From Dehalococcoidia bacterium (lineage in GTDB: Bacteria; Chloroflexota; Dehalococcoidia; Lucifugimonadales; UBA3495), in NCBI GenBank assembly GCA_965249065.1, contig CBDFLG010000001.1, positions 421,084 to 485,083 of the forward strand: a DNA stretch of 64,000 bases. Direction: 5' to 3'. Under the pieces are notes generated by a model that worked only from the letters and a program-made list of their open reading frames with translations, was not told the DNA's origin and did not search any database. The position numbers and the translations under genes were made by a program. This document shows positions 1,235 through 58,225 of the stretch, in pieces (position 1 is the first letter of the stretch; each line of letters starts with the position of its first letter).

Positions 1235-2110
1235 CTACCCCCGGTCCCCCGGCAGGCGGGTTGCCACCGCTGCCATGCCGGGCGGGGGCCAGTTGCCGGT
1301 TAGGTAGTCGTATAGGTTGGCGGCGCTTATGCGCATCACCATTGGGGCCATGCCTTCCTGCTCCACGTCCATCGGGTAGCGGTCGGTCAGCGCGGTCAGC
1401 GTGGCCGTTGCCTCCTCGCGGGTCAGGCCCCGGTCTATGGCGTCCTGCACGTAGTCCTTCCACTCGATGATGAACTCGCCCTGCTCGTCCAGGTAGTCCT
1501 TGCCGCACAGCGCGCCGTGGCCCGGAACGAAGATGTCCTCGCCCAGCTTGCGCAGCGACTCCAGAGCCGTCAGCCACAGGTCGGGGTTGGCCTCGTGGAG
1601 CCAGGTCTGCACTCCGTGGAAGATGTTGTCGCTGGTGAACACCACGCCCTCTTCCTTAATCACCACCGCCGCCTGATACAGCGTATGGCCGGGCATACTA
1701 ATCATCTCGAAGGTGTGGTCGCCGACGTGCAGGGTCATCGCGTCCTGGAAGGTGATGATTGGCGCGTTGGCCCGGTAGCCTTCCAGCAGCGCCGGCTCGT
1801 CCGGGCCGAAGGTGCCGACGCGGGCGGCGTGTTCCGCCATGTCGGTGTTCAGGATACGGGTGCGGACGCCCTCGTGGGCGATGACCGGCGCGTCGAAAAA
1901 GGCGTTGCCGGTCCAGTGGTCGCCGTGGGGTTCGGTGTTGATGATGTAGCGCAGCAGTCCGCGCTTCTCGATTTCGGCCCGCAGCCACATCGCAGTGCTG
2001 GGCTTGTGCGGGCTGTCAATCATCACGATGCCCTCGGAGGTGGTGACAAAGCCGAAGTTGCAGCCCCGCGCCTCGGTCTCGACCCATACGTTGCTGGTAA
2101 GCTGTTTCAT
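1235..2110 (-). CDS. MBL-fold metallo-hydrolase
   Basis: 291-aa ORF with a metallo-beta-lactamase His cluster (NTEPHGDHWTGN) and later PGHT and VPGHG sites. AGGGAGG lies 7 nt upstream of the ATG. Confidence 0.85.
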   Translation of the reverse strand: MKQLTSNVWVETEARGCNFGFVTTSEGIVMIDSPHKPSTAMWLRAEIEKRGLLRYIINTEPHGDHWTGNAFFDAPVIAHEGVRTRILNTDMAEHAARVGTFGPDEPALLEGYRANAPIITFQDAMTLHVGDHTFEMISMPGHTLYQAAVVIKEEGVVFTSDNIFHGVQTWLHEANPDLWLTALESLRKLGEDIFVPGHGALCGKDYLDEQGEFIIEWKDYVQDAIDRGLTREEATATLTALTDRYPMDVEQEGMAPMVMRISAANLYDYLTGNWPPPGMAAVATRLPGDRG

Positions 2111-2241
2111 AGCTGGCCTCCCTGATTAAGAGGAAGAGATTTGACCGGCGGATAAGCGTTCGCCGCCCTGCATTCTACACGGTTGACCGGCTGGGTGGGC
2201 GCGCCTATGCTGTATAACCAATTCATCGTGCTGGGGGAGCG

Positions 2242-2706
2242 TTGGACAGCCGCGACCTGGATCTTCACGGCAAGACTTGGCCCGAAGCCTTGGAAGAGTT
2301 TGTGGACGCCTACAACAAGGCCGTGCAGCCCGGCGGCCATGCTTGCCGCACGCTGCGGGTCATCCACGGCTACGGCTCCACCGGCGGCCCCGGCGTCCTG
2401 CGCACCCGTTTCCGCAAGTTCCTGGGGAAGCACGACACCCGGCTGGAATTCACGCCCGGCGAGAAGACCGACGGCAACCCCGGATACACAACGGTTACTC
2501 CGAAATACGCCCTCCCCGGCGCCGATGCCGCCTTGTCCGAGTTGGTCTGGGACTACTGCGAACAGCCGAAAACCCTAAACAAAATCGCGGGCCAGTTCCG
2601 CCGCTACGGTACGCCCCGGGTGCAGCAGGCGGTCCGCTCGCTGGTGGCGCAGCAACGGCTCCGAAAGGGGGCCAGGGCGCGCAACAGCGTGTACGAGGCG
2701 GTGTAA
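2242..2706 (+). CDS. Smr domain-containing protein
   Basis: 154-aa ORF. LDLHG...LRVIHGYGSTG matches the Smr/MutS2 C-terminal domain signature. The TTG start from the track is uncertain. Confidence 0.7.
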   Translation: MDSRDLDLHGKTWPEALEEFVDAYNKAVQPGGHACRTLRVIHGYGSTGGPGVLRTRFRKFLGKHDTRLEFTPGEKTDGNPGYTTVTPKYALPGADAALSELVWDYCEQPKTLNKIAGQFRRYGTPRVQQAVRSLVAQQRLRKGARARNSVYEAV

Positions 2707-2777
2707 CGGCTGCCATAACGGCAGGCCCACCGGGAACTCGCTGGCATAATTCACTCAACCGGGCTGGAGGACAAGCT

Positions 2778-3281
2778 ATGGGCGAAATGTTGCAGCAGGG
2801 GGGCCGATTTCCCCAATTGGAGTTGAAGTTGCTGGACGGCGGGACGCTGACTCTGCCCGGCGATGCGCCGAGCCGCTACACCGCGCTGCTGTTCTACCGG
2901 GGGCACTGGTGACCCTACTGCCAGCGGCAGTTGGCCGCGTATGAGGCAGCCAAACCGGAATTAGACGCGCTGGGCGTGACCGTCATAGCCGTCAGCACCG
3001 ACAACGAGGAGCAGGCGCAGGAAGTGAAGGGCCGCGGCTTGAGCTTCCCGGTCGCTTACGGCGCTAACAAGGCCGACGCCGACACCATCGGCGCCTGGTG
3101 GTCCGACGATCGCGGCGGCTTCGTCCAGCCTGCCGAGTTCCTGCTGGGACGCGGCGGCGTGGTGCTGGGGGCCATGTACGCCTCCGGCCCGGTGGGACGT
3201 ATGGCGTCCGACGAAGTCATCTATTCCATAACGTCCCGCGAGAACCGGCGGCGCCAAGAAGAAGGCGAAACGGCAGGATAG
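2778..3281 (+). CDS. AhpC/TSA-type peroxiredoxin-like thioredoxin-fold protein, probable selenoprotein (UGA-Sec at 2910-2912)
   Basis: ATG 2778 has GGAGG 7 nt upstream. The tail of ORF 2277..2912 and ORF 2931..3281 share a frame and are separated only by TGA. Read-through gives ALLFYRGHW-U-PYCQRQLAAYEAAKPELDALGVTVIAVSTDN, the FYRGxWCPxC motif with U in place of the first Cys. Confidence 0.7.
2918..2949 (+). promoter_or_regulatory. Candidate bacterial SECIS hairpin downstream of UGA 2910-2912
   Basis: Lower stem CUGCC (2918-2922) pairs with GGCAG (2945-2949). Upper stem GCGGC (2924-2928) pairs with GCCGC (2934-2938). Apical loop AGUUG contains GU about 17-21 nt after the UGA. Folded by eye only. 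Confidence 0.4.
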
Positions 3282-3292
3282 ATTATCCACAA

Positions 3293-3324
3293 TTTTAGGG
3301 GCGCACAGCCGTGCGCCCCTAAAA
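3293..3324. repeat. Hairpin repeat family 1 (AGGGGCGCAC-AGCC-GTGCGCCCCT), copy a
   Basis: Perfect 14-bp stem TTTTAGGGGCGCAC / GTGCGCCCCTAAAA with loop AGCC, in the gap between the Prx stop and the DinB start. The same 24-nt core recurs at 35637-35660, with a degenerate copy at 27392-27415. Confidence 0.8.
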
Positions 3325-3350
3325 GGTACTCTTGTGTACAAGGGACTCTT

Positions 3351-4184
3351 ATGAACGAAGCCAATCAGCAACTCGTAGACATGATGGAACACGTCTGGCG
3401 CTCCATCGCCACCCTCTGCAACGGCCTCACCGAAGCCCAGTGGAAGACGCCCACCGACTGCCCCGGCTGGTCGGTGCAGGACCAGATCTCGCATCTGGCA
3501 GGCTCCGAGACGGGGATCCTGGGCGACCCCGACCCCGGCCACACGCCCGCCGACCTCTCGCACACCCGCAGCGAGCAGGGACGGCACAACGAGATCGTGG
3601 TGGACTTCCGCCGCCCGTGGCCCGGCCAGCAGGTGCTTTCCGACTTCCGCGCCAAGACCGCCCGCCGGATGGAAAGCCTGCGCGCGATGTCCGACGACGA
3701 CTTTGCCGCCGAGATGCAGACCCCGGTCGGCCCCGGCAGCGTCTCCGAGTTCCTCAGCATCCGCATCATGGACGCCTGGATTCACGAGCAGGACATCCGC
3801 CGCGCCCTGAACCGCCCCGGCGAGATGGAGGGGGCGGTCGCCGCCCACGCGCTGGGCCGCGTCATCCGCGCCATGCCCTTCGTCGCCGCCCGCCGCGCCC
3901 AGGCCCCCGACGGCACGACCGTGCTGTTCGACATCTCCGGCCCTGCCGGACGCCTCATGCCCATCGGCGTCACCGTAACCTCCGACGGAAGCCGACGCGG
4001 CCGCGAGCTGGAGCAGGCCCCCGGCAGCCCCACCGTCCGCATCACCCTCGACGCCGAGACCTTCGGCTGCCTCGGCTGCGGCCGCTGGGACCCCGACGAA
4101 GTCCTGCGGTCGGGCCAGGTGTCCATCGAGGGCGACACCACCCTCGGCGAGTCCATCGTCCGCCAAATGAACATAATGCCCTGA
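3351..4184 (+). CDS. DinB-fold / maleylpyruvate-isomerase-family (mycothiol-dependent enzyme type) protein with C-terminal SCP2-like domain
   Basis: 277-aa ORF. The N-terminus HVWRSIATLCNGLTEAQWKTPTDCPGWSVQDQISHL is typical of the TIGR03083-type DinB domain. The C-terminal LRSGQVSIEGDTTLGESIV is sterol-carrier-like. Confidence 0.75.
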   Translation: MNEANQQLVDMMEHVWRSIATLCNGLTEAQWKTPTDCPGWSVQDQISHLAGSETGILGDPDPGHTPADLSHTRSEQGRHNEIVVDFRRPWPGQQVLSDFRAKTARRMESLRAMSDDDFAAEMQTPVGPGSVSEFLSIRIMDAWIHEQDIRRALNRPGEMEGAVAAHALGRVIRAMPFVAARRAQAPDGTTVLFDISGPAGRLMPIGVTVTSDGSRRGRELEQAPGSPTVRITLDAETFGCLGCGRWDPDEVLRSGQVSIEGDTTLGESIVRQMNIMP

Positions 4185-4705
4185 CGCCACCACCTTTCCG
4201 TTTACCTGTTTCGCAGGGGGCAGGCGCCGGGCGCCCCTGGGCATCGAGTGTCTGCTCTGCAAGGCAGAACCGGCCAGGCGGGCGGTCTCGGTGCGCCATT
4301 CGGAAAACCGAGATTACGCCGGCTCCGCAGTTGTTGCGGCCCTCCTCGTCACTCCCTCCTCACCCGCCGGGATGCTCTCTTGGCAGTTGCATTGCATACC
4401 GCCGAGGACGTTTCCGGTGCGGCAACTTGGAGCTGCCTCGTCCCATCCCTCTCCCACTGGATACAGAAACGCCAAAATCGGCTGAAATCCCCTGACAGAC
4501 ATATTGAGTCGATTGCAAAATTGAACAGAACGTCAGAAAGCCACCCGCCCTTGGAGCAACAGCAGCCAGCCATACCGGACCGGAACACCAACTGATAATG
4601 TACGCAAGCAACCGGTTCACCACGGAGCTCGATGTGAGGTAATCCGATAGACATGGCCAGTCAGGAACAACCAAGTTTGCTGGACAAACGCCCTGAGAGT
4701 ACAAT

Positions 4706-4753
4706 CAGCCCAAACGCAAGGAGCATCGGCAGCCTAAACGCAAGGAGCACCGG
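4706..4753 (+). repeat. 2 x 24-bp tandem direct repeat, each unit carrying an AAGGAG Shine-Dalgarno-like core, directly upstream of ATG 4759
   Basis: CAGCCCAAACGCAAGGAGCATCGG (4706-4729) and CAGCCTAAACGCAAGGAGCACCGG (4730-4753), 22/24 identical. Confidence 0.85.
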
Positions 4754-4758
4754 GTCCA

Positions 4759-5211
4759 ATGACCACCATCAACACAGTAGATGACTTCCTCATAGATTAC
4801 TATGTCCAGAACCACGTCCAAAAGTTCGCGGAAGTAATCGCCGACAACCTGGATCTGAAGTGCGTCCAAACTCTCAGTCCCAAACAACTGCTGGACATCG
4901 CGAAGAAAATGACCGGCTCCACGGGAATAGACCAGAGCCAACGAAACAGCTTTGTGCACGCCGATCTCGTTATCGAAGCGACAGCAGAGAACGGCGAAAC
5001 CGCCTACGTTACGGTCGAAGCGTCATGGACCGCAGACAACAGGGACTCCGGCAGAGCTCTGCGCAACGCCAGGTATCTCGAAAACGCGACCGGGCACCGC
5101 GCAATTGCAGCCGTAGCCAGCGTCCGTAACGATTACGAAGTGGAAGAGCTGGTCGAAAACGGACAGCTACACTGGCACAGCATCCCAGACAATGACCTGC
5201 AACCCGAGTAG
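4759..5211 (+). CDS. Hypothetical protein (150 aa)
   Basis: ATG lies 11 nt after AAGGAG. The region is AT-richer than its flanks. The segment HADLVIEA...AYVTVEASWTADNRDSGRALRNARYL faintly recalls PD-(D/E)XK-like small proteins, but I cannot assign a family. Confidence 0.55.
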   Translation: MTTINTVDDFLIDYYVQNHVQKFAEVIADNLDLKCVQTLSPKQLLDIAKKMTGSTGIDQSQRNSFVHADLVIEATAENGETAYVTVEASWTADNRDSGRALRNARYLENATGHRAIAAVASVRNDYEVEELVENGQLHWHSIPDNDLQPE

Positions 5212-5246
5212 GAAGGGATAATTCACAAACAAGCTTCAAAGGACTA

Positions 5247-5624
5247 CTAGTGGCGGTGGCCCGTTGAGTGCATTATCAGGTTGCCCTTGGCGACTTCGGT
5301 CATCACCTCCACCGCCTCGGCCAGGGTCTCGTCGTCCACTCCGAGATGCTTCACGGCATCCAGATGGAAGCGCACTCAAACGCCGCAATTGTTCATGGCG
5401 GACACGATGTAGGCAATGAGCTTCTTGGTCTTCAGGTCCAGCCTTCCGGCAACCATGGTCTGCTGGTAGTAAGCCCAGTAGGATTCCAGGTGGGCCGGGT
5501 TGTGGGCGATTAGCTGGAAGGTCTGCGGCACAAATTCCCAACCCATGCTCGCCTTGATTTCTTCGTAAATTTCCTTCACCCTGCCGGTGGCTTGCTGTTC
5601 GGTTACCAGCTCTACTCTGGCCAA
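5247..5624 (-). CDS. Carboxymuconolactone decarboxylase / AhpD-like protein, probable selenoprotein (UGA-Sec at 5376-5378)
   Basis: TTG start at 5624 with AGGAG 8 nt upstream. The track ORF 5376..5624 stops at TGA. The same frame continues 42 codons to TAG at 5247-5249. Read-through gives SAMNNC-GV-U-VRFHLDAVKHLGVDDETL, matching the AhpD/CMD CxxCxxxH motif with U at the second Cys. Confidence 0.7.
5344..5371 (-). promoter_or_regulatory. Candidate SECIS region downstream of UGA 5376-5378
   Basis: Two alternative hairpins seen by eye: GCUUC/GAAGC (5 to 28 nt after the UGA), or GGAUG-CCGUGAAG-CAUCU (15 to 32 nt after the UGA, apical loop with GU). Weak. Confidence 0.3.
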
Positions 5625-5970
5625 CGCTTCGTCTCCTTTCTTGTGCGTGTCCCGCCGGAAGCTCCCGGCTCTCTCGGTGATGGTATCACCGGAAGCAATT
5701 GGCCGCAGATGCGCCGGGGGGAACGTCCAGCGAAATTGTTTCCGATTTGTTGCCGGACGGATTGGCGAGACTGTATGATTGGATAAGACTCTTCAGGGGA
5801 ATGGCGCCTCCCGCGCTTCCTTGGAGCTTGGGCCGGGGTGGGAGCAGGGGTTGGCATTCCCCGTCTGCGCTCATCGCTTGGGCCACGAATTGGGAAACCG
5901 GCCCGCAGGGCTCGTGTCAGCGCAGGACCGTTGGAGGCGGCCTCTCTGCGGCAAGTGGAATGTGGTGTTA

Positions 5971-8890: not shown

Positions 8891-9712
8891 ATGGCTACGG
8901 CGAAAGTAAATGGCGCGGAGCTATATTACGAAGAGGCCGGGAGCGGCCCTCCGATTATTCTGTCGGCGGGCGGGCTGCAGGGGGTAGCCAGCAGTTACGG
9001 GCCGGTGATTGACGCCCTGTCGCAGGAGCACCGGGTGGTGGTCTACGACCGCAGGTTTGGCGGCCAGTCCCGCAGTCCCTTGGTGGTGCAGACTTGGGAC
9101 ATGGTGTGCGACGATGTGTTCGGGTTGATGGACGCTTTGGGAATCGAGCAGAGCTATCTGGGCGGAGGGTCGTTTGGCGCGGCCATTTCCTTCGGCTGTG
9201 CTTCCCGTCGCCCCGAACGGGTGAGAGCCATTTTCCCGTCGAACATCGCGGGCGGGGTCATCTGCGACGGCTATCTAACGTCCAAGCTGTTCAAGAGCAT
9301 GGAGCTAGCCGCGGCTGAGGGCATTTCGGCGGTGGTGGGCGCTTTCGACGCCGACGACCGCTTCGCCCCCTTCAGCCCGGAGATTGCCCAGACCGACGAC
9401 GGCTACCGCAAAGACCTGGAAGCGATGGACACCGAGGAGTTCATCCAGGTGATGCGAGACAGCATCTATGCCCTCTTCGGCGGCCCGTTCCCAACGCTGG
9501 GCAGCACCGAGAAGATGCTGAAAGGCGTCAGCGTACCGGCGATGATTATGCCGGGATGCAACGACGTGCATCCGAGGGCAGTGGCCGAGATGGCCCACCG
9601 TCTCGTCCCCAACTGCCAGTGGGGCGAGTGCAAACCCCACTCCGACGAGCCGGAAAAGTACGCCAAGCGGGTGCTGCAATTCCTGTCGGAAGTGGAGGCA
9701 AACGGCGCTTAA
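8891..9712 (+). CDS. Alpha/beta hydrolase
   Basis: 273-aa ORF with nucleophile elbow GGGSFGA. The N-terminal GSGPPIILSAGG and the length fit the fold. AGGAGG lies upstream. Confidence 0.8.
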   Translation: MATAKVNGAELYYEEAGSGPPIILSAGGLQGVASSYGPVIDALSQEHRVVVYDRRFGGQSRSPLVVQTWDMVCDDVFGLMDALGIEQSYLGGGSFGAAISFGCASRRPERVRAIFPSNIAGGVICDGYLTSKLFKSMELAAAEGISAVVGAFDADDRFAPFSPEIAQTDDGYRKDLEAMDTEEFIQVMRDSIYALFGGPFPTLGSTEKMLKGVSVPAMIMPGCNDVHPRAVAEMAHRLVPNCQWGECKPHSDEPEKYAKRVLQFLSEVEANGA

Positions 9713-10035
9713 CGACCGAGTTCGCTCGGTAAGTTACCAGACGGTGCTGGCACGAGGGGCTCGATTACGCTAACGTCGGTCGAGTCCCGGGCCCTCTCCA
9801 GGTCATAGAGCTTTTGCAGGTTTAGCCAGAAGTCCGGCGTCATTCGCAACGCCTTCCCGATGCGAAGCGCAGTGTCTGCTGAGATAGAGCGGTTGGCGTG
9901 AACGATCTCGTTGATGCGCCGTGGGGAAACTCCTATGGCTGTCGCTAGTCGATATTGGCTGATTTCCAATTCGCCCAGAATTTCAGCTAGGTGTTCCCCG
10001 GGATGGATGGGTGCGTTCTCTTCCAAGGCAGCCAC
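9709..10035 (-). CDS. higA: HigA-family antitoxin (XRE-type HTH)
   Basis: IHPGEHLAEILGELEISQYRLATAIGVSPRRINEIVHANRSISADTALRIGKAL is the HigA/VapI signature. The track start at 10062 overlaps higB. GTG 10035, just after the higB stop, is the more likely start. Confidence 0.85.
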   Translation of the reverse strand: MAALEENAPIHPGEHLAEILGELEISQYRLATAIGVSPRRINEIVHANRSISADTALRIGKALRMTPDFWLNLQKLYDLERARDSTDVSVIEPLVPAPSGNLPSELGR

Positions 10036-10036
10036 C

Positions 10037-10318
10037 TCACGAATGATAGTCCACCACTTCAATTTCCTTGGCGCCTTCGTCCGTCCAAGTGAAGCAAACT
10101 CTCCACTGGTCGTTGACTCGAATGCTGTATTGGCCTGCCCGGTTGCCTCTCAAAACTTCCAACCGGTGTGAAGGAGGCACAAGCAGATCCAACAGGTCAT
10201 CGGCGGCCACAACTCGCTGGAGCCTCATGCGAGTCCGCGTCCTGACGTCTGGCGGAAGCCAGCGGGGAAACCGCCCCAAGAAAGCAAGCTCGGTTTCCCT
10301 GTCGGCAAAGAGTCTCAA
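10037..10318 (-). CDS. higB: HigB-type toxin (RelE/ParE superfamily, plasmid maintenance system killer)
   Basis: 93 aa: FADRETELAFLG...LDLLVPPSHRLEVLRGNRAGQYSIRVNDQWRVCFTW...VVDYH. TTG start; an in-frame TAG lies 3 codons upstream. Confidence 0.85.
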   Translation of the reverse strand: MRLFADRETELAFLGRFPRWLPPDVRTRTRMRLQRVVAADDLLDLLVPPSHRLEVLRGNRAGQYSIRVNDQWRVCFTWTDEGAKEIEVVDYHS

Positions 10319-13292: not shown

Positions 13293-13577
13293 ATGGAAAT
13301 TTCAATTAGCGAAGAACTGCGCAAACGGATTCAGTGGAAAGTTGACGCTGGGATATATCCTTCAGCGGACGAGGTAGTCGAGCGAGCCCTCGATCTACTT
13401 GACCAGCGCGACGTAGCTGTGGCAATGGTTCAGGATATGGTACAGGAAGGTATCGACGATATAGAAAACGGGCGCTACAAGACATACTCAGCGGAAAATC
13501 GCGATGAGTTGCTGGAAGATATAAAGCAGCGTGCGCTGAAACTGGAAGCGGAACGCAAGCAAAGGCGCAACACTTGA
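13293..13577 (+). CDS. parD: ParD-family antitoxin (RHH)
   Basis: 94 aa: ISISEELRKRIQWKVDAGIYPSADEVVERALDLLDQRD is the ParD_antitoxin signature. Confidence 0.85.
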   Translation: MEISISEELRKRIQWKVDAGIYPSADEVVERALDLLDQRDVAVAMVQDMVQEGIDDIENGRYKTYSAENRDELLEDIKQRALKLEAERKQRRNT

Positions 13578-13873
13578 TGGAAAGCTATCACCTTACTGAC
13601 ACCGCGGCCGCAGACCTCGCTCATATCCGAAGCTTTCTTCGCAGAAGGGGTGGGGAGCAAGTTGCCAGCAGAATGATCGCTCGCCTACGGGACATTTTCG
13701 AACTCTTGGCCGAACAGCCCTTTATAGGGATTGAGCGTCCCTTACTGCCCGGAATGCGAAGCCACTCGGTTTCCCGCACGCGCTATATCATCCTTTACTT
13801 TCCCCACAAGACGCCGATCGAGATACATCGTGTCCTGCACGGTAGCCAAGACATCGAGCAACTTTTTGAGTAA
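13577..13873 (+). CDS. parE: ParE/RelE-family toxin
   Basis: ATG shares 1 nt with the parD TGA. Translation: YHLTDTAAADLAHIRSFL...AEQPFIGIERPLLPGMRSHSVSRTRYIILYF...IEIHRVLHGSQD. Confidence 0.85.
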   Translation: MESYHLTDTAAADLAHIRSFLRRRGGEQVASRMIARLRDIFELLAEQPFIGIERPLLPGMRSHSVSRTRYIILYFPHKTPIEIHRVLHGSQDIEQLFE

Positions 13874-47982: not shown

Positions 47983-49668
47983 TTAAGCTCTTGCGCCGAA
48001 GATGGCGTTCGGGAGCCATAGGGCGATACCCGGGAAAGCCAGCACTAGAGCGGTGGTAACGGCCATACAGCCCATGAAGGGCAGCACCCCGATCCACACG
48101 TCGGCGATGGTGCTTTGCTGCAACACCTCGTTGGCGGCTTCAGCCTGCTCCCGGTCTATGTCGAGCCGCACACCGTGCAACACGTAGAGGTTGATGCCCT
48201 CCGGCGGGCTGATCAGGGCAGCTTCTACCAGCAGCACCATGATGACGCCGAACCAGACCAGGTCAACGCCCGCTCCCTCCAGCGTCGGCAGCAGAATTGG
48301 CACCGTTGTGACCATCATGGCGAAGCTTTCCATAAAGGTGCCCAGCACCAAGTAGAAAACTACCAGCACCAGCACCAGTTGGACTTCGTTCAGGTTCAGG
48401 CTGGAAATTGCCTCGGCAATCTGCTGGGAGATGCCCAGCCGGGCGAAGGCGAACGACAAGGTGAAAGCGGCCAGCACTATCAGGAAGATCATACCCGTAG
48501 TGCGGACCGTCGAGGTCATAGCGTCCTGCACGATGTTGAAGTTGCGCCGGATGAGTTGCTTCTGTACCGCATTGTCGGGGAACCGCGCGTTGCGGAGCTC
48601 TTCTTGAGTCGCGTTTACCAGGAATGGCACCCAGCCGGTCCACGGGACAATCACCACCTCGACGAGAAAGATGTTTTCACCAACAATTGCACCGAGGAAA
48701 ATGTTGGGGTCACCCAAATCCTCCCCTTTGAGAGCCAAGCCTATCTGCAAGGCCAGATGCACCAGCAACAGGCCCACCAGCAGTCCCAGCGACCACTTTA
48801 CAAAGCTCGATATACTGATGAGTCCCAGGCTCCGCATCGCGGTGCCGAAGAAGGGGAGCAAGATTTCTTCCGTGTTCAGGATGATCGCCAGCACGAAAGC
48901 GCCGTATACCCCGAAGGCCGCCGCTTCGCTGGGGGTGGCGATGCCGCCGTAGATGGAGCCAATCACCACGATAATCAGCGCGACTATCGGTATAAGGGAG
49001 ATAGAGCCGAGGAGCCGGTTCACCCAACCTCGTATGGTGAAGAAACTGTCGCCGTGCTCGCGCGGGGCCAATCCCTTCCAGACAATGGCAAGGGCGAAGA
49101 TCATGAGCATAAAAGTCCCGGTCAGCACCATGCCGGGAACGAACCCGGCCATGTACAGGCGCCCGATGGATTCCTCCACCAGCACGCCGTAAATAATGAG
49201 GCTGATGCTGGGCGGAATCAGAATCCCCAGAGTTCCCCCAGCGGCCAGGGAGCCAATCACCATGCGCTCCGAGTAGCCCCGCTGCCGGAAGCTGGGCAGC
49301 GACACGCGGCTGATGGTGGCCGAGGTTGCTACGCTGGACCCGGAGCAGGCGGCGAAAATGGCGCACGAAACGATGTTGGTATGAATCAGGCCACCGGGCA
49401 ACCACCAAATCCAGCGGGTGATGCCCGCATACATCCGCTCGCCCATACCGCTCCGGTTCATCAGCTCGCCCATCAGGATGAACAGCGGCACGGCCACCAG
49501 AATGAAGCTGGTATTCCCTTCCCACGCCTTGTTGGCCATGATGTTCCACAAAGGAGCATCGGAGAAGAAAAACATGATGATGAGGGACAGAGAGCCCAGC
49601 GCCGCGGCCACGTAAAGCCCTGCCAGGAAGAAGGCTCCCATCAATCCGAATGCTACGCCAATTGCCAC
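47983..49668 (-). CDS. dctM: TRAP transporter large permease (DctM family), unusually long (561 aa)
   Basis: Multi-pass protein with a DctM-like N-terminus MAIGVAFGLMGAFFLAGLYVAAALG and the conserved LFILMGELMNRSG. It has an extra central segment of about 120 aa. Confidence 0.85.
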   Translation of the reverse strand: MAIGVAFGLMGAFFLAGLYVAAALGSLSLIIMFFFSDAPLWNIMANKAWEGNTSFILVAVPLFILMGELMNRSGMGERMYAGITRWIWWLPGGLIHTNIVSCAIFAACSGSSVATSATISRVSLPSFRQRGYSERMVIGSLAAGGTLGILIPPSISLIIYGVLVEESIGRLYMAGFVPGMVLTGTFMLMIFALAIVWKGLAPREHGDSFFTIRGWVNRLLGSISLIPIVALIIVVIGSIYGGIATPSEAAAFGVYGAFVLAIILNTEEILLPFFGTAMRSLGLISISSFVKWSLGLLVGLLLVHLALQIGLALKGEDLGDPNIFLGAIVGENIFLVEVVIVPWTGWVPFLVNATQEELRNARFPDNAVQKQLIRRNFNIVQDAMTSTVRTTGMIFLIVLAAFTLSFAFARLGISQQIAEAISSLNLNEVQLVLVLVVFYLVLGTFMESFAMMVTTVPILLPTLEGAGVDLVWFGVIMVLLVEAALISPPEGINLYVLHGVRLDIDREQAEAANEVLQQSTIADVWIGVLPFMGCMAVTTALVLAFPGIALWLPNAIFGARA

Positions 49669-52747: not shown

Positions 52748-54307
52748 TTATTGGGCGTTTGGGCCCTTGGTTATCGGGGCGTCGGACACGGAGCCGTCGG
52801 CGTTGATAGCGAGGCCGACGTAGGGGCCGACGTGTTCGTTGAATATCCCAACGACCTCGTCCCCTTTGCCGGGGTAGCCCACCCGCCGCAGCCAGCCGGG
52901 GATGACGTGCTGGACTACGGACACGTTAAAGCTGTGGTCGGCCAGTTCGGGCGAGAACTCCACCAGTTCCATTCCGGCATCCACGTTCTTCTGTACGCCG
53001 GTGACGTTCTGGATGGAGGTGAGCCGCAACTGCTCCAGCTCGGCCTTGGCCCCTTCCTCAATGAAAATCTGCTGGAGGTCGGCGGGGATGCTCTCCCAGA
53101 CATCCGCGTTGACCACGTTGTTGGTGGAAAGCAGGCTCTTCAGCGGGCCGTTTAGGTATGCGGTGACTTCATACCACCGCTGACCGTGCCCTGGGGTGGA
53201 GCCGGTTACGCCAGCCTCGAGGATGCCGCGCTCCAAGGCGGTGTAGACCTCGGCGAAGGCCACGAACTGGGCTTCGGCGCCCATGCCCTGAATCCAGTCG
53301 GACAGGGCGGCGGCGTGGCTGCGTGTCTTGAGTCCTTCGAAGTCGGCGAGGGTGCGCAGGGGCTTCTTGCTGAAGAAGAACTGGTCGTTGCCGGAATACC
53401 AGTTGTGGTTGATGATGAGACCGCCGCCGGTTTCTACGGCCACCATCTCTTCCAACTGCGGGTGCATATCGGTTAGCGACAGGTACATCGTCTCCCAGTC
53501 GGGGTAGATGCCCCAGAGCGATTGCACTTCGATGGCGGGCAGCGCGCCGGCCACGTAGCCAGTGTAGATGTTGGCCATGGAGATGGTGCCATCAGAGACC
53601 AGTTGCAGAGTATCCGGGCCGGCTAGGCCCAACTCTGGGAAGGAGCTGACCACCAGATTTAGCTGCCCGTTGGTGCGGGCCTCCAGGTTGGGGGCCCAAT
53701 GCTGCTCAATGAGCTTGCAGGGCAGCAGGGCGCGGTTGATGCAGGCGTGCTGAACCTTGATAGATTCCCCGCTGGAAACCAGCTCGGTGGGGTTGGTTAA
53801 GTTGGCCCTCTCGATGAGCGATTGATAATAGTCGCTTTCGTACAGCCACAGATGGTCGGTCAGGGCGTCTAGGGGCACGTTGCCCTCGGAGTCGCCTAGG
53901 TCGTTGTCCGGTCCGCCGCCGGCGGTGAGCGGGGCGGGGCCGGCCATCTGACTGATGTCGCCCACGTAAATCGCGCCGGGGCCGCCGGCGTTATCGGCGG
54001 CGTATTCCATCAGGGCATCGTCTCCGGTCATCATTGCCGCGGTCGGCTCGGGCATGGCCGTAGGCTCTTCGACGCCAGTGGTGTCCGTGGGCTCGGGCAT
54101 GGCCGTGGGCTCTTCGGCGCCAGTGGTGTCCGTGGGCTCGGGCATGGCCGTGGGCTCTTCGGCGGCCGCAGGCGCGGCGGTAGCAGTCGGCGGCACCGCG
54201 GTTGGGGGAGGCGAAGTTGCCGCCTCGCCGCAGGCGGCCAGCCCTGCCGTCAGCAGCAGCATTGAGACCATCAGTAGAATCGCGATTGGTAGTCTGGGGT
54301 TAATCAT
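52748..54307 (-). CDS. dctP: TRAP substrate-binding protein (DctP family) with lipoprotein signal and a long Pro/Thr/Glu-rich tether, paralog 1
   Basis: 519 aa: LLLTAGLAACGE lipobox and a 3x EEPTAMPEPTDTTG repeat, followed by a DctP-like body. AGGAGG lies 11 nt upstream of the ATG. Confidence 0.8.
   Translation of the reverse strand: MINPRLPIAILLMVSMLLLTAGLAACGEAATSPPPTAVPPTATAAPAAAEEPTAMPEPTDTTGAEEPTAMPEPTDTTGVEEPTAMPEPTAAMMTGDDALMEYAADNAGGPGAIYVGDISQMAGPAPLTAGGGPDNDLGDSEGNVPLDALTDHLWLYESDYYQSLIERANLTNPTELVSSGESIKVQHACINRALLPCKLIEQHWAPNLEARTNGQLNLVVSSFPELGLAGPDTLQLVSDGTISMANIYTGYVAGALPAIEVQSLWGIYPDWETMYLSLTDMHPQLEEMVAVETGGGLIINHNWYSGNDQFFFSKKPLRTLADFEGLKTRSHAAALSDWIQGMGAEAQFVAFAEVYTALERGILEAGVTGSTPGHGQRWYEVTAYLNGPLKSLLSTNNVVNADVWESIPADLQQIFIEEGAKAELEQLRLTSIQNVTGVQKNVDAGMELVEFSPELADHSFNVSVVQHVIPGWLRRVGYPGKGDEVVGIFNEHVGPYVGLAINADGSVSDAPITKGPNAQ
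54045..54160 (-). repeat. 42-bp tandem repeat (2.7 units) inside the dctP-1 linker region
   Basis: GGCTCGGGCATGGCCGTRGGCTCTTCGRCGCCAGTGGTGTCCGTG at 54045-54086 and 54087-54128, with a partial unit at 54129-54160. It encodes EEPTAMPEPTDTTG. Confidence 0.8.
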
Positions 54308-54436
54308 CCTGGGGTTTACCTCCTAAATTTGCCCCCCGCCTGGGGGGTTCCTGATAGGTATTCTCTGAGTTTTCCGTGTTCTCTCCGGCCCTTTCGACGG
54401 CTGGCTTGCGGGCGGCCACCCCTGCAAGGTTCGCGT

Positions 54437-56068
54437 TTATTGGCCGGCGCGCGAGCCCTTGGTGATTGGAACCTGCGTAATCGTACCGTCCTCGTTAACC
54501 CAGACTCCTGTATAGGGGCTCATCTTGTCGTTGAAGATGGCCACAATGTCGGCACTCCTCTCCGGGTACCCCAGACGGCGCAGCCAGCCCGGCATGACGT
54601 GTTGCGGCACAACCACGGTCTGGATATGCTCCAGGATCTCCGGAGAGAATGGCACCGGCTGCATACCAAGCTGCATATTGATTTGCACTGCGGCGAGGTT
54701 CTGGAACGGAGCTAATCGCAGCCCTTCCAGTTCGGCTTTCGCACCCTCCTCGACGATAATCTGTTGCAGGTCCTCGGGTATCTCGCTCCAAACGTCCTTG
54801 TTGATGACGTTGTTGGTATAGCCGAAGCCGATGATTGGCCCCGACATATAGTCGGTCACCTCATGCAGTTTGGCGGACGCTGCCAGCAGAGCGTCATACA
54901 CGGCCACGTCTACCACCCCGGTGTTCAGGGCGGTATAAAGTTCGGCTATGGAGGTGAAGTTCGCCTCACCACCCATCCCAACGATGAAATCCGACATGGA
55001 CGCAGAGTTGGAACGAATCTTCAGGCCGTCGTAGTCTTCCACACTCTGAAGCGGCTTGCTGCTGTAGAACCACTGGTCTGATCCGGCAAACCAGTTGCGG
55101 TTCAGCACGTGGCTACCGCCCGTCGCGTCTAACATCAACCGGTCTATGTCGTCGGCGACCGCGGTGAGGCTAAGGTACGACGTCTCCCAGTCGGGGGCCG
55201 TGCCCCAGAGTGATTGAACCTCTAGGGCGGGCAGCTCTCCCGCTACGTAGCCGGTAAAGATGTTGACCATATCCAGGGTGCCGTCGGTCACTTGGCTCAG
55301 GGTGTCGGGGCCGGCTATCTGTAATTCTACGAGGGATACCACCGAGAGTTTGACTTGGCCGTTGGTGCGTTTTGCTATGTTGGGCGCCAAGTAGGTTTGA
55401 ATTAGCACACAGGCCGGCAGGTTGCGGTCTAGGCAGACGTGCTGAATCTTGATGTCCTCGCCGGAGGAAGTCAACTCGGCAGGGCTGGTCAGGTTGGCTT
55501 TTTCCAGCAGACCCTGGTAGTACTCGCTGGTGTAGATGAACAGGTGGCTGGGCACGCCCAACTCCGGCAACCCGAACAAACCTAGAGTGGCAGCTTGGGT
55601 GTAGGCTTCCTCCGGGAACCGGAACATCAGCCCCTCATGGGGTGGTGGGCCGATTAGCTGCATAGGGTCGCCAATGAAAATCGCGCCCGGGCCGTTGGCG
55701 TATTCGGCAGCGTAAGCCGCCAGCTTCTCTTCCTCCTCCGACATCACGGGCGGAGTAGTGGGATCCGGGGTTGCAGGTGCAGCGACGGCTGCGGTCTGGG
55801 CAGGCTCGGTGGTAGCGACCGGCTCGGCTGTGGTGGCGGGAACCGGCGTTGGGGTGGCCGCAGGTTCGGGAGTGGCAGGGGCAGGGGCAGACGAGGTGGG
55901 CATAGCAGTGGGTGGAACGGGTGTAGGCTCCGGCGCGGCGGTGGCCGCCGGTTCCGTCGGCGCGGCGTCATCCCCGCCGCAGGCCGTCAGACCGGCTAGC
56001 AAGGCGATGATCAAAATTACCGGAATAATCAACCGCGCCAAAGCTGCCTCTCTTTGCTGTACATACAA
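54437..56068 (-). CDS. dctP: TRAP substrate-binding protein (DctP family) with lipoprotein signal and Pro/Thr/Ala-rich tether, paralog 2
   Basis: 543 aa: ALLAGLTACGG lipobox. The body is colinear with paralog 1 (for example GPDTLSQVTDGTLDMVNIFTGYVAGELPALEVQSLWG). Confidence 0.8.
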   Translation of the reverse strand: MYVQQREAALARLIIPVILIIALLAGLTACGGDDAAPTEPAATAAPEPTPVPPTAMPTSSAPAPATPEPAATPTPVPATTAEPVATTEPAQTAAVAAPATPDPTTPPVMSEEEEKLAAYAAEYANGPGAIFIGDPMQLIGPPPHEGLMFRFPEEAYTQAATLGLFGLPELGVPSHLFIYTSEYYQGLLEKANLTSPAELTSSGEDIKIQHVCLDRNLPACVLIQTYLAPNIAKRTNGQVKLSVVSLVELQIAGPDTLSQVTDGTLDMVNIFTGYVAGELPALEVQSLWGTAPDWETSYLSLTAVADDIDRLMLDATGGSHVLNRNWFAGSDQWFYSSKPLQSVEDYDGLKIRSNSASMSDFIVGMGGEANFTSIAELYTALNTGVVDVAVYDALLAASAKLHEVTDYMSGPIIGFGYTNNVINKDVWSEIPEDLQQIIVEEGAKAELEGLRLAPFQNLAAVQINMQLGMQPVPFSPEILEHIQTVVVPQHVMPGWLRRLGYPERSADIVAIFNDKMSPYTGVWVNEDGTITQVPITKGSRAGQ

Positions 56069-56231
56069 AAACTTGGTTGCCGTATACGACGGCGCATTTT
56101 AAAGGCTGAAAGCGTTCAGGCCAACAACCGCTAACTGACGCAATTACCGATGCACATTACGAAAACAGGCGGCGTTGCGACAGAATCGGGTATGTAAGTT
56201 CCGGCGAAGGATGTGCAAAGACGGGCGGCGC

Positions 56232-57923
56232 TCAACGGGCTCCCTTCGCTTGGTCCGGCAGCCAGGTGACGATCTCGGGGAACAGCATCAGAATGCCGAT
56301 AACCACGGCCATACATACCATAAAAGGCAAGACCCCGATATAGACGTCGTTGATCGTCTCGGTTTCGGTCACTCCCCGCAGTTCCGCCGTCTCGTGCCGC
56401 GCGCCGTGCAGGACGTAGAGCGAAAGGCCTTGGGGAGGGCTGATTTGCGCCGCCTCCAGCAGGATAATCATTATGATGCCGAACCAGAGCATATCGATTC
56501 CGCTCTGGAACAGCGTCTCCAGCAGGATGGGCAGCGTGGTCGCCAGCATGGAGTAGCTTTCCATGAAAGTGCCAAGCAGAAGGTAGAAGATTACCAGTAT
56601 CCCCACCAACTGCCAGTCGGCCAAATCCAGGCTCACTACCAGGTCGGCCAGGGCGTGGGAGATTCGCAGGTAGGCGAAGGCAAATTGCAGGGTAAACGCC
56701 GCCATCAGAATGAACATAATCATGCAGGTGGTGCGCATGGTGGACGTGAACACTTCCTGCAGCATTGACAGGTTGGAGCGCATTACCATGCTGACGTTGA
56801 CCATCGAGGGCATTCGAGATTCCTCTAACTCCTCGCGAGATACTTCCGACAATACAGGCACCCAGCCCATCGGCGGGAGGAACAGCACCTCGATCAGGAA
56901 TATCGCCTCGGCGATTTCGGGGTCCACGAAAAGCGAACTGTCAGGGAAGAAGACCAGAAAGACCGTCTGAACAGTCAGGTGCAACACCACCAGACCGATG
57001 AATGTTCCCACGGCCAGGCGCAGGGGAGAGTAGAAGCGGATGAGTCCGGTGTTACGCAGCACAGCGCCGATTACCGGCACCCATAGCGGTTTCGAGTTGT
57101 AGAGGCAGGCGAGGATGAAAGCGCCGTATACCCCGATGGCCGCCGCTTCGCTGGGGGTAGCGATGCCCCCGTAGATGGAGCCAAGCACGGCCAGAATCAG
57201 AATAGTCACCGGCCCCACGGCGATGGAGCCGACGAGCCGGTCGCGCCATCCCCGCCAGTAGCCCGGCTGCCAGAAGCATACGTAGGCATTTAAGAAAGTC
57301 AACTCTCCCTGGACCCTGGGAGCGACGCCCGGCCAGACCACGGCAGCGAAACCAATTAAAGCCATAAAGGTAAACGCCATCAGCGCACCGGGGATGAACC
57401 CGGCCAGAAACAGCCGGCCAATGGAGGTGCCGGTGCTGAGTCCGTAGATGAGCAGCAGGACGCTGGGCGGAATCAGGATGCCCAGCGTACCTCCGGCAGC
57501 CAGCGAACCCACCACCAGCCGCTCGTTGTAGCCGCGGGTGTGGAACGTCGGCAACGCTACCCGGCTGATGGTGGCCGCGGTGGAGATACTGGATCCGGAG
57601 CAGGCGGCGAAGATGGCGCAGGACACGATGTTGGTGTGCAGCAGTCCGCCTGGTATTGGCGCCACCCAGCGGTCCAGCGCCCGGTACATTCGATCGGCGA
57701 TTCCGCTGCGCAGCACCAACTCGCCCATCAAAATGAACAGCGGAATGGCCACCAGCAGGAATCTGGTATAGGTTTCCCATACCCGGTTGGCCATGATGTT
57801 GGACAGCGGCGCTTCGGAGAAGAACTCCATGAGCAGCAGAGCCAAGCCCCCCAGCGCTCCAGCCACGTACAGCCCGGCTAGGAAGAAGACGGTCATCAGG
57901 ATGAATGCTACGGCTATAACCAA
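56232..57923 (-). CDS. dctM: TRAP transporter large permease (DctM family), paralog 2, unusually long
   Basis: The track ORF runs to 58022 (596 aa). TTG 57923 gives MVIAVAFILMTVFFLAGLYVAGALG, colinear with the paralog 1 N-terminus. It has the same central extra segment. Confidence 0.8.
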   Translation of the reverse strand: MVIAVAFILMTVFFLAGLYVAGALGGLALLLMEFFSEAPLSNIMANRVWETYTRFLLVAIPLFILMGELVLRSGIADRMYRALDRWVAPIPGGLLHTNIVSCAIFAACSGSSISTAATISRVALPTFHTRGYNERLVVGSLAAGGTLGILIPPSVLLLIYGLSTGTSIGRLFLAGFIPGALMAFTFMALIGFAAVVWPGVAPRVQGELTFLNAYVCFWQPGYWRGWRDRLVGSIAVGPVTILILAVLGSIYGGIATPSEAAAIGVYGAFILACLYNSKPLWVPVIGAVLRNTGLIRFYSPLRLAVGTFIGLVVLHLTVQTVFLVFFPDSSLFVDPEIAEAIFLIEVLFLPPMGWVPVLSEVSREELEESRMPSMVNVSMVMRSNLSMLQEVFTSTMRTTCMIMFILMAAFTLQFAFAYLRISHALADLVVSLDLADWQLVGILVIFYLLLGTFMESYSMLATTLPILLETLFQSGIDMLWFGIIMIILLEAAQISPPQGLSLYVLHGARHETAELRGVTETETINDVYIGVLPFMVCMAVVIGILMLFPEIVTWLPDQAKGAR

Positions 57924-58225
57924 ACAGCCACGACCTTCATTTTTACGGTGTAGACCGGAAGTCTGGAATTTTCGGTACTTGAGATCGGGCTTGGGATAAT
58001 GGAACTGAAGGGCCTGTTTCACAAGCAGAGGCCCCCGCAGGAAATCGGGGGCCGTTTCCGATCGCGCTCTTTGTCAGGAACCACCCGGACCAAATACCCG
58101 GCTAAGTTATCACTAACGGGCCGCCTTGAAAAGGATAGCACAAGACGGCCGGGGCCTTTCGGCGGTTCTTGGCAGCCCCTTCTCTCCGGGGAGAAGGGAC
58201 TGCAATCCAAAAGCGCCCACCCATC

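Follow-up and report, generated by a model that had tools for sequence, protein, structure and literature searches.

We analyzed a stretch of 64,000 nucleotides from a Dehalococcoidia bacterium (assembly GCA_965249065.1, contig CBDFLG010000001.1, positions 421,084 to 485,083 of the forward strand; hereafter the window) and, within it, a minus-strand gene whose product is related to AhpD and to the carboxymuconolactone decarboxylases (CMD) and whose reading frame contains a UGA at codon 83. Our analysis indicates that this UGA very probably encodes selenocysteine (Sec, U) and that the gene is therefore a selenoprotein gene. This reading is based on a CMD domain match that runs across the UGA, on the pairing of the UGA with cysteine in homologous proteins, on the strict conservation of the UGA, on selection acting on the codons that follow it, and on constraint at the level of the RNA.

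Results

A CMD Domain Spans an In-Frame UGA

The 82-codon minus-strand open reading frame (ORF) 5624..5379 closes with ...IAYIVSAMNNCGV at a TGA (5378..5376). Past this codon the frame continues for 42 codons as VRFHLDAVKHLGVDDETLAEAVEVMTEVAKGNLIMHSTGHRH (VRFHLDAVKH...STGHRH), up to a TAG at 5249..5247, and the read-through product has 125 residues with the motif C80-G-V-U83-V-R-F-H87. An earlier reading made from the letters alone (the original prediction) had given these coordinates, this translation, a length of about 125 aa and the C-G-V-U-V-R-F-H motif, and we reproduced all of them from the sequence and frame. The G+C content at third codon positions (GC3) is 0.76 before the UGA and 0.83 after it; both values are typical of coding DNA in this window, which is 62% G+C and in which real genes have a GC3 of ~0.8.

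With U written as C, the read-through protein matched the CMD family PF02627 with E = 6.9e-14 and 52 bits (cut-off 23), and the match aligned residues 43-119 with profile positions 1-77 of 84, thus spanning the UGA. The 82-residue part alone scored 21.5 bits, under the cut-off of 23. The 42-residue tail by itself matched profile positions 43-77, which agrees with the proposal that the continuation after the motif is normal family sequence. The NCBIfam domain model TIGR00778 (ahpD_dom) was also matched above its cut-off (37.2 bits versus 27.8). The models for named AhpD-type subfamilies gave weak matches, all of them under cut-off: TIGR01926 ("AhpD-like"; 51.1 versus 81.8), NF041047 (the GSU3128 family; 20.9 versus 110), NF053654 (YciW-related; 22.2 versus 310) and NF041537 (ArsM/AhpD; 34.5 versus 510). 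As judged from its sequence, the gene product is a single-domain member of the AhpD/CMD superfamily; of the categories in a recent review (PMC13188914), only the broad "CMD-like, PF02627, CxxU" one accommodates it.

The best homolog of solved structure was the AhpD-core protein 2ouw (E = 2.9e-11, residues 11-117), and homology to the solved AhpD-core chains implies an all-helical CMD fold. C80, U83, and H87 align with the motifs CSYCAHSH (2ouw), CVYCAVSH (6k40), and CDDCIRYH (1vke and 1p8c), with U on the second Cys. H87 falls in the column of the conserved His of these structures, and the spacing to the His that had been noted from the sequence is thus correct.

The UGA Pairs with Cysteine in Homologous Proteins

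The original prediction had called for an alignment with CMD/AhpD proteins and for a search for Cys/Sec pairs, and both gave the expected result. Full-length Cys-form homologs include P0089, a metagenomic protein of 125 aa with 54% identity (...NKCDACIRFHLDS...GRRH) and the motif CDACIRFH, and P0092, with the motif CGLCVRFH. In an alignment of 14 sequences, Cys occupies the column of the U in 13/13 full-length homologs, the column of C80 shows no variation, and that of H87 shows almost none; as in the solved structures, it is the second Cys of CxxCxxxH with which the UGA aligns. At this codon, the genes of the closest Cys-form homologs have TGC.

An exhaustive phmmer search of 50%-identity representatives, with the 81-residue N-terminal part as the query, returned 391 relatives. 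Among these, ~24 further clusters stop exactly after C-x-x, compared with 46 CxxCxxx[H/Y] proteins. The truncated clusters are probably additional Sec forms, and their number is in keeping with the literature, in which AhpD-like CxxU proteins are among the commonest prokaryotic selenoprotein families.

The UGA and the 42 Codons beyond It Are Conserved

An ortholog scan with one genome per species gave 49 loci, all in metagenome-assembled genomes of Dehalococcoidia/Chloroflexota. These comprise 48 intact orthologs (61-93% protein identity) and one decayed copy; counts over 49 sequences refer to the window plus the 48 intact orthologs. The 48 orthologs are collinear with the window protein over residues 1-125. 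The start codon is TTG in 38 of the 49 sequences, ATG in 9, and GTG in 2, and a Shine-Dalgarno sequence of the GGAG/GGAGG type lies closely 5' of it in essentially all orthologs.

Codon 83 is TGA in 49/49 sequences. The final terminator varies (TAG in 30, TGA in 12, and TAA in 7), and the extension between the two is 42 codons long in every intact ortholog, with no frameshift and no internal stop. Codons 2-82 have a pooled ratio of nonsynonymous to synonymous substitution rates (dN/dS) of 0.118 and codons 84-125 one of 0.092, at a pooled dS of ~0.9 to 1.3. Nucleotide identity averages 0.76 in the N-terminal part and 0.81 in the extension, and it is 0.27 right after the second stop. By these measures the extension is under strong purifying selection. 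With a CMD match across the UGA, and with the UGA and extension kept in 48/48 intact orthologs, the feature lies well outside what chance would produce. Given the universal TGA, the constant length, and the low dN/dS of the extension, real termination after NNCGV, which the original prediction had named as an outcome that would speak against it, is not what these genes display.

The codon immediately 5' of the UGA may also be constrained. At codon 82 (window 5379..5381, minus strand), all 42 orthologs that have Val use GTT, whereas the other Val codons of the gene vary freely. The fixed GTT suggests that the context of the putative Sec codon limits the choice of the codon before it.

Two decayed copies were seen. 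One, at locus L049 (3001..3434 of OY730490.1), has a frameshift, a C80R substitution, and an early stop, with the TGA still in place. In the other, P0199, the TGA has become TGG (CGVWVRLNLD), and the His and the terminator are gone.

A search of a collection of 5.8 billion protein clusters found 87 close relatives. Essentially all of them were called at or near 82 aa; none of the 87 spans the extension, and there is no Cys-form among them. The public names of such gene calls, where there are any, are "hypothetical" or "AhpD/CMD family protein YurZ".

An Invariant Hairpin Follows the UGA

The RNA 3' of the UGA can be folded into a hairpin of 13 pairs with two bulges and the loop CGUGAA (-14.8 kcal/mol). 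The fold begins 10 nt past the UGA, its apical stem begins at 15 nt, and its loop begins at 20 nt, a distance that is inside the range of the consensus for bacterial Sec insertion sequence (SECIS) elements. The "GGAUG...CAUCU" hairpin of the original prediction is present in this fold. The feature fits the SECIS criterion as it is worded in PMC1088965, namely a stem-loop that directly follows the UGA and whose small apical loop contains a G.

The apical element GAUGC-CGUGAA-GCAUC occupies positions 19-34, where the U of the UGA is position 1, and is invariant at 16/16 nucleotides in 47 distinct ortholog sequences. It corresponds to codons 89-93 (D-A-V-K-H), in which five third positions are frozen, including the four-fold degenerate sites at Ala90 and Val91. 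Asp89 is always encoded by GAT, against a preference for GAC at nearby Asp codons, and His93 always by CAT, although both CAT and CAC occur at His87. Of the 116 degenerate codons of the gene, only 7 show no third-position variation, and the hairpin run accounts for 5 of these (permutation p about 1e-5). The closest TGC genes do not have the hairpin and carry GAUUC-CUUAUA-CCAGU or GAUAU-AGCAAA-ACGCC at the equivalent site. The hairpin that the original prediction had singled out for examination is thus invariant, is shielded from synonymous change, and is missing from the homologous genes that encode Cys.

In the lower stem, 90% of cells are paired, compared with 36-45% when the partners are slid. 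In 388 kb of related DNA, a pattern scan for this kind of hairpin behind in-frame TGAs matched AhpD-like genes only.

Selenocysteine Use and UGA Usage in the Lineage

The articles PMC4959059 and PMC5424206 contain nothing on Sec use in Chloroflexi or on alternative UGA decoding that bears on this clade. The database BSepDB, which was built from species with a Sec pathway, places [quoted passage not shown] among its top ten bacteria, with 46 selenoprotein genes. Isolate 10f4566d is the source of one of our ortholog loci (L036), where a 76%-identical ortholog has the same TGA and the same hairpin. The listing of this genome supports the presence of a Sec pathway at the level of the lineage.

Terminator usage was counted in 28 confident ORFs of the window: 14 end in TAA, 10 in TAG, and 4 in TGA, so that TGA is the rarest terminator at 62% G+C. 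Genomes rich in G+C usually prefer TGA as the terminator. The scarcity of TGA in this role may be connected with extensive decoding of UGA as Sec in the lineage.

The original prediction had counted this gene as a second probable selenoprotein. That part of the claim found no support: three scans for in-frame TGAs with a coding signal on both sides turned up antisense-frame artefacts only and no other selenoprotein in the window. The most promising candidate, a minus-strand frame at 3365..4174 with a TGA at 3782..3784 and a GC3 of 0.95, was rejected as an antisense artefact that shares its third positions with the plus-strand gene at 3351..4184. The region 2961..4495 contains three long overlapping ORFs, and GC phase identifies as the real gene 3351..4184 (plus strand, 277 aa, an unusually high GC3 of ~0.93), a member of the MDMPI_N/DinB_2 family; the minus-frame ORFs there are artefacts.

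Alternative Readings of the UGA

Several results weigh against Sec at codon 83. None of selA, selB, selD, and the gene for tRNA-Sec is within the 64-kb window, whose tRNA content is a single species, tRNA-Pro. Neither sel genes nor tRNA-Sec were found in the fetched ortholog loci, and these 49 loci contain no tRNAs. The protein stayed under the cut-off of every dedicated NCBIfam selenoprotein model for AhpD relatives. Around the UGA there was no match to a SECIS model in Rfam, whether the gathering threshold or an E value of up to 10 was applied. As the original prediction had conceded, the hairpin by itself is weak: the fold is not unusually stable (z = -1.6 at best, with 14/200 shuffles as stable, and z ~0 in a longer context). 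The 388 kb of related DNA offered no independent example in the form of another UGA gene with a comparable hairpin. Covariation in the lower stem was no better than in column shuffles, and RNAalifold keeps only the apical stem, with another register below it. For these last two reasons we make no claim of compensatory changes, and the support from the RNA, as read from the aligned genes, is its invariance and the suppression of synonymous change.

Next to Sec, the reading that fares best, itself improbable, is that the UGA is recoded to another residue: to Cys, by a tRNA-Sec-like tRNA-Cys together with a SelB-type factor, or to Trp or Gly, by near-cognate or lineage-specific decoding. Some bacteria are known to insert Cys in a SECIS-dependent manner, sequence alone cannot identify the residue inserted at a SECIS-dependent UGA, and the window did not show the Sec machinery of its genome. 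However, Cys could be had by a single change of TGA to TGC or TGT, and the clade has no Cys-form; a related genome that bears an ortholog is catalogued with a Sec pathway and 46 selenoproteins; and CxxU is a documented state of the family. SECIS-dependent insertion of another residue, such as Cys, therefore appears unparsimonious. A global reassignment of UGA was rejected outright, as TGA ends 4/28 of the confident genes in the window and 12/49 of the orthologs of this same gene.

It is still less probable, to the point of being negligible, that the UGA is a genuine stop, with an 82-residue fragment as the product and the 42 downstream codons as the untranslated remains of a pseudogene. Such a reading would agree with the public gene calls, all of which end at 82 aa, with a hairpin that alone is not statistically stable, and with the lack of sel genes in the window. 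It is at odds with the selection on the extension, which is no weaker than on the N-terminal part (dN/dS 0.092, at a dS of ~0.9 to 1.3), and with a product that would be without half of the CMD domain and under the Pfam cut-off. Furthermore, the copies that have truly decayed (L049 and P0199) look different. We exclude a pseudogene because the extension is under purifying selection and constant in length, and because conservation collapses sharply at the second stop and not before it.

Equally hard to credit is a split gene, in which translation stops at the UGA and restarts at an adjoining GUG, so that a single CMD domain, with Cys80 only, is put together from products of 82 and 42 aa. In the window, the codon after the UGA is indeed GTG, a possible start (5247..5375 is a 42-aa ORF that begins with GTG), but codon 84 is GTC or GTA, neither of them a start, in 9/49 orthologs, and no Shine-Dalgarno sequence is evident upstream of it. 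Reinitiation would not demand TGA exclusively, and yet the stop is always TGA and falls exactly on the catalytic second Cys. Finally, the frozen sites lie 15 to 30 nt 3' of the UGA and not at a ribosome-binding site.

A Proposed Mechanism and the Substitution at Lys68

If codon 83 is decoded as Sec, the apical hairpin GAUGC-CGUGAA-GCAUC (5360..5345) would act as a bacterial SECIS element and would recruit SelB and Sec-tRNA(Sec) to the ribosome at the UGA, which would then be decoded without termination. If the protein works as AhpD does, U83 would supply, as its selenolate, the nucleophile that attacks a peroxide or an oxidised partner thiol, for example that of a peroxiredoxin. C80 would resolve the resulting intermediate to form an intramolecular selenenylsulfide, and a cellular thiol reductant would return the selenenylsulfide to its reduced state. 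The nucleophilic Cys of AhpD is Cys133, and U83 sits at its position.

At one position the clade differs from most of its relatives. The window protein and all 48 orthologs have Lys at position 68, which aligns with a Glu of 2ouw, 6k40, and 1vke. Glu is found at this position in 11/13 of the Cys homologs and, among representatives outside the clade, in 42/48 of the Cys type and 23/25 of the Sec type. The proton-relay Glu of AhpD is thus replaced by Lys68; this Glu belongs to the catalysis of AhpD proper and is not needed for membership in the Pfam family.

The invariant Lys in place of the relay Glu and the lack of a Cys-form among the close homologs recovered suggest a more specific possibility, which we put forward tentatively and regard as rather doubtful. 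The Dehalococcoidia clade might be an obligate-Sec variant of AhpD with a changed catalytic apparatus (K68-x11-C-x-x-U-x3-H) and with a substrate or mechanism different from that of classical AhpD. In such an enzyme the selenolate would need no Glu-His-water relay, and the Lys could stabilise the selenolate or selenenate or could bind an anionic substrate. If this were true, the clade would offer a natural case of active-site remodelling after a switch from Cys to Sec, one that makes reversion to Cys unfit.

Features of the Gene and Its Genomic Context

The positions of the features discussed above are collected in Table 1.

Table 1. Features of the AhpD/CMD-like gene and of the RNA downstream of its in-frame UGA (window coordinates)
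Feature	Position	Strand	Description
Shine-Dalgarno sequence GGAG	5633..5636	minus	8 nt 5' of the TTG start, 5624..5622
Read-through coding sequence	5247..5624	minus	125 codons, TTG start, UGA at codon 83, plus TAG; CMD (PF02627) match
Lys68 codon AAG	5421..5423	minus	position of the proton-relay Glu of the family, 12 residues ahead of the first Cys
Cys80 codon TGC	5385..5387	minus	first Cys of C-x-x-U; invariant alignment column
In-frame UGA, codon 83	5376..5378	minus	second CxxC position; probable Sec codon
His87 codon CAT	5364..5366	minus	His of C-x-x-U-x3-H; aligned to the conserved His
Extension of 42 codons	5250..5375	minus	C-terminal half of the CMD domain
Apical SECIS-like hairpin	5345..5360	minus	5-bp stem GAUGC/GCAUC, 6-nt loop CGUGAA; invariant
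Extended lower stem	5335..5368	minus	13 pairs, two bulges in the window sequence
True terminator TAG	5247..5249	minus	same codon position terminates all orthologs

The gene appears to be monocistronic. No operon partner was found: the upstream PAP2 gene is divergent and is present in 22/49 loci, and an MFS transporter gene is near in 16/49. A scan for promoters and terminators gave nothing on the strand of the gene. On the downstream side, the segment ~2100..5240 has no counterpart in the 49 ortholog loci and may be variable or inserted. It includes an ORF at 4759..5211 (plus strand, 150 aa) of lower G+C content with no Pfam match; 21 other loci have instead a convergent 146-aa ORF at the downstream position. 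In the locus of the closest ortholog (L050, 4003..6034, on a contig of ENA ERZ26694896), genes for a Ni-superoxide dismutase, an HSP20 protein, and a MerR protein lie 4-6 kb upstream; they were not seen in the window. That neighbourhood may be stress-related; the arrangement is suggestive and does not amount to evidence.

The other genes of the window are of a catabolic or housekeeping kind and encode an amidase, CoA ligases, enoyl-CoA hydratases, luciferase-like monooxygenases, and amidohydrolases, together with TRAP transporters, PmbA/TldD, Mfd, and toxin-antitoxin pairs. There are two type II toxin-antitoxin pairs, ParD/ParE at 13293..13873 (plus strand) and a HigB-like toxin with a helix-turn-helix antitoxin at 9709..10318 (minus strand). 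The two TRAP-transporter sets (47983..49668 and 52748..58022, minus strand) encode two DctM-type proteins (561 and 596 aa) and two binding proteins of the DctP type (519 and 543 aa), each of the latter with an N-terminal extension of ~200 residues before the DctP domain.

Discussion

If the UGA is read as Sec, as we consider very likely, the active-site half of this protein and its dependence on selenium are invisible in the standard annotation of these abundant Dehalococcoidia genomes, and re-annotation would add one more selenoprotein to each such genome. This would fit the recent picture, drawn from BSepDB, of some Dehalococcoidia as rich in selenoproteins. The gene would also be a clean case of a SECIS element inside a coding sequence, where constraint on the RNA freezes five synonymous sites and, with them, the peptide DAVKH. 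The change from Glu to Lys provides a small, testable lead on how an active site may adapt to Sec.

AhpD-like (COG2128/TIGR01926) and CMD-like (PF02627) selenoproteins with a CxxU motif have been described in marine and other metagenomes (Zhang, Fomenko & Gladyshev, 2005, PMC1088965; Zhang & Gladyshev, 2008, PMC2398784), and both types are included in a 2026 review (PMC13188914) and in BSepDB. The window protein shares with them the PF02627/TIGR00778 domain, the placement of Sec at the second Cys of CxxC, and a stem-loop after the UGA with a G in a small loop. It differs from them in its length (125 aa, compared with the 178 positions of TIGR01926), in scoring under the cut-off of every named subfamily, and in having Lys in place of the relay Glu. 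Moreover, all 49 sequences come from Dehalococcoidia/Chloroflexota, and no close Cys-form was recovered.

In AhpD of Mycobacterium tuberculosis, the relay residues are Glu118, Cys130, Cys133, and His137 (PMC6300522). K68, C80, U83, and H87 have the same spacing of 12, 3, and 4 (X-x11-C-x2-C/U-x3-H), with Sec in place of the second Cys and Lys in place of Glu118. Unlike AhpD, the window protein is a single small domain, which matches the AhpD subfamily model TIGR00777 (177 positions) over 118-159 only. In addition, its gene does not adjoin a gene for AhpC or another peroxiredoxin; the neighbours are genes of the PAP2 family, for an MFS transporter, and of the MDMPI/DinB family.

The Cys-form protein P0089 has the length of the window protein, the same GxRRH C-terminus, and a similar context around the motif (NKC-DA-C-IRFHLD, compared with NNC-GV-U-VRFHLD in the window). 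In contrast to the window gene, P0089 has TGC at codon 83, the relay Glu (IKEIIAY), and no hairpin, and the G+C content of its gene is much lower (0.42, compared with 0.57).

On these comparisons, the gene works like the known CxxU proteins, and nothing in it should surprise a specialist in selenoproteins. What is new is a member of a clade that public gene calls have shortened to 82 aa and in which the Glu has been replaced by Lys.

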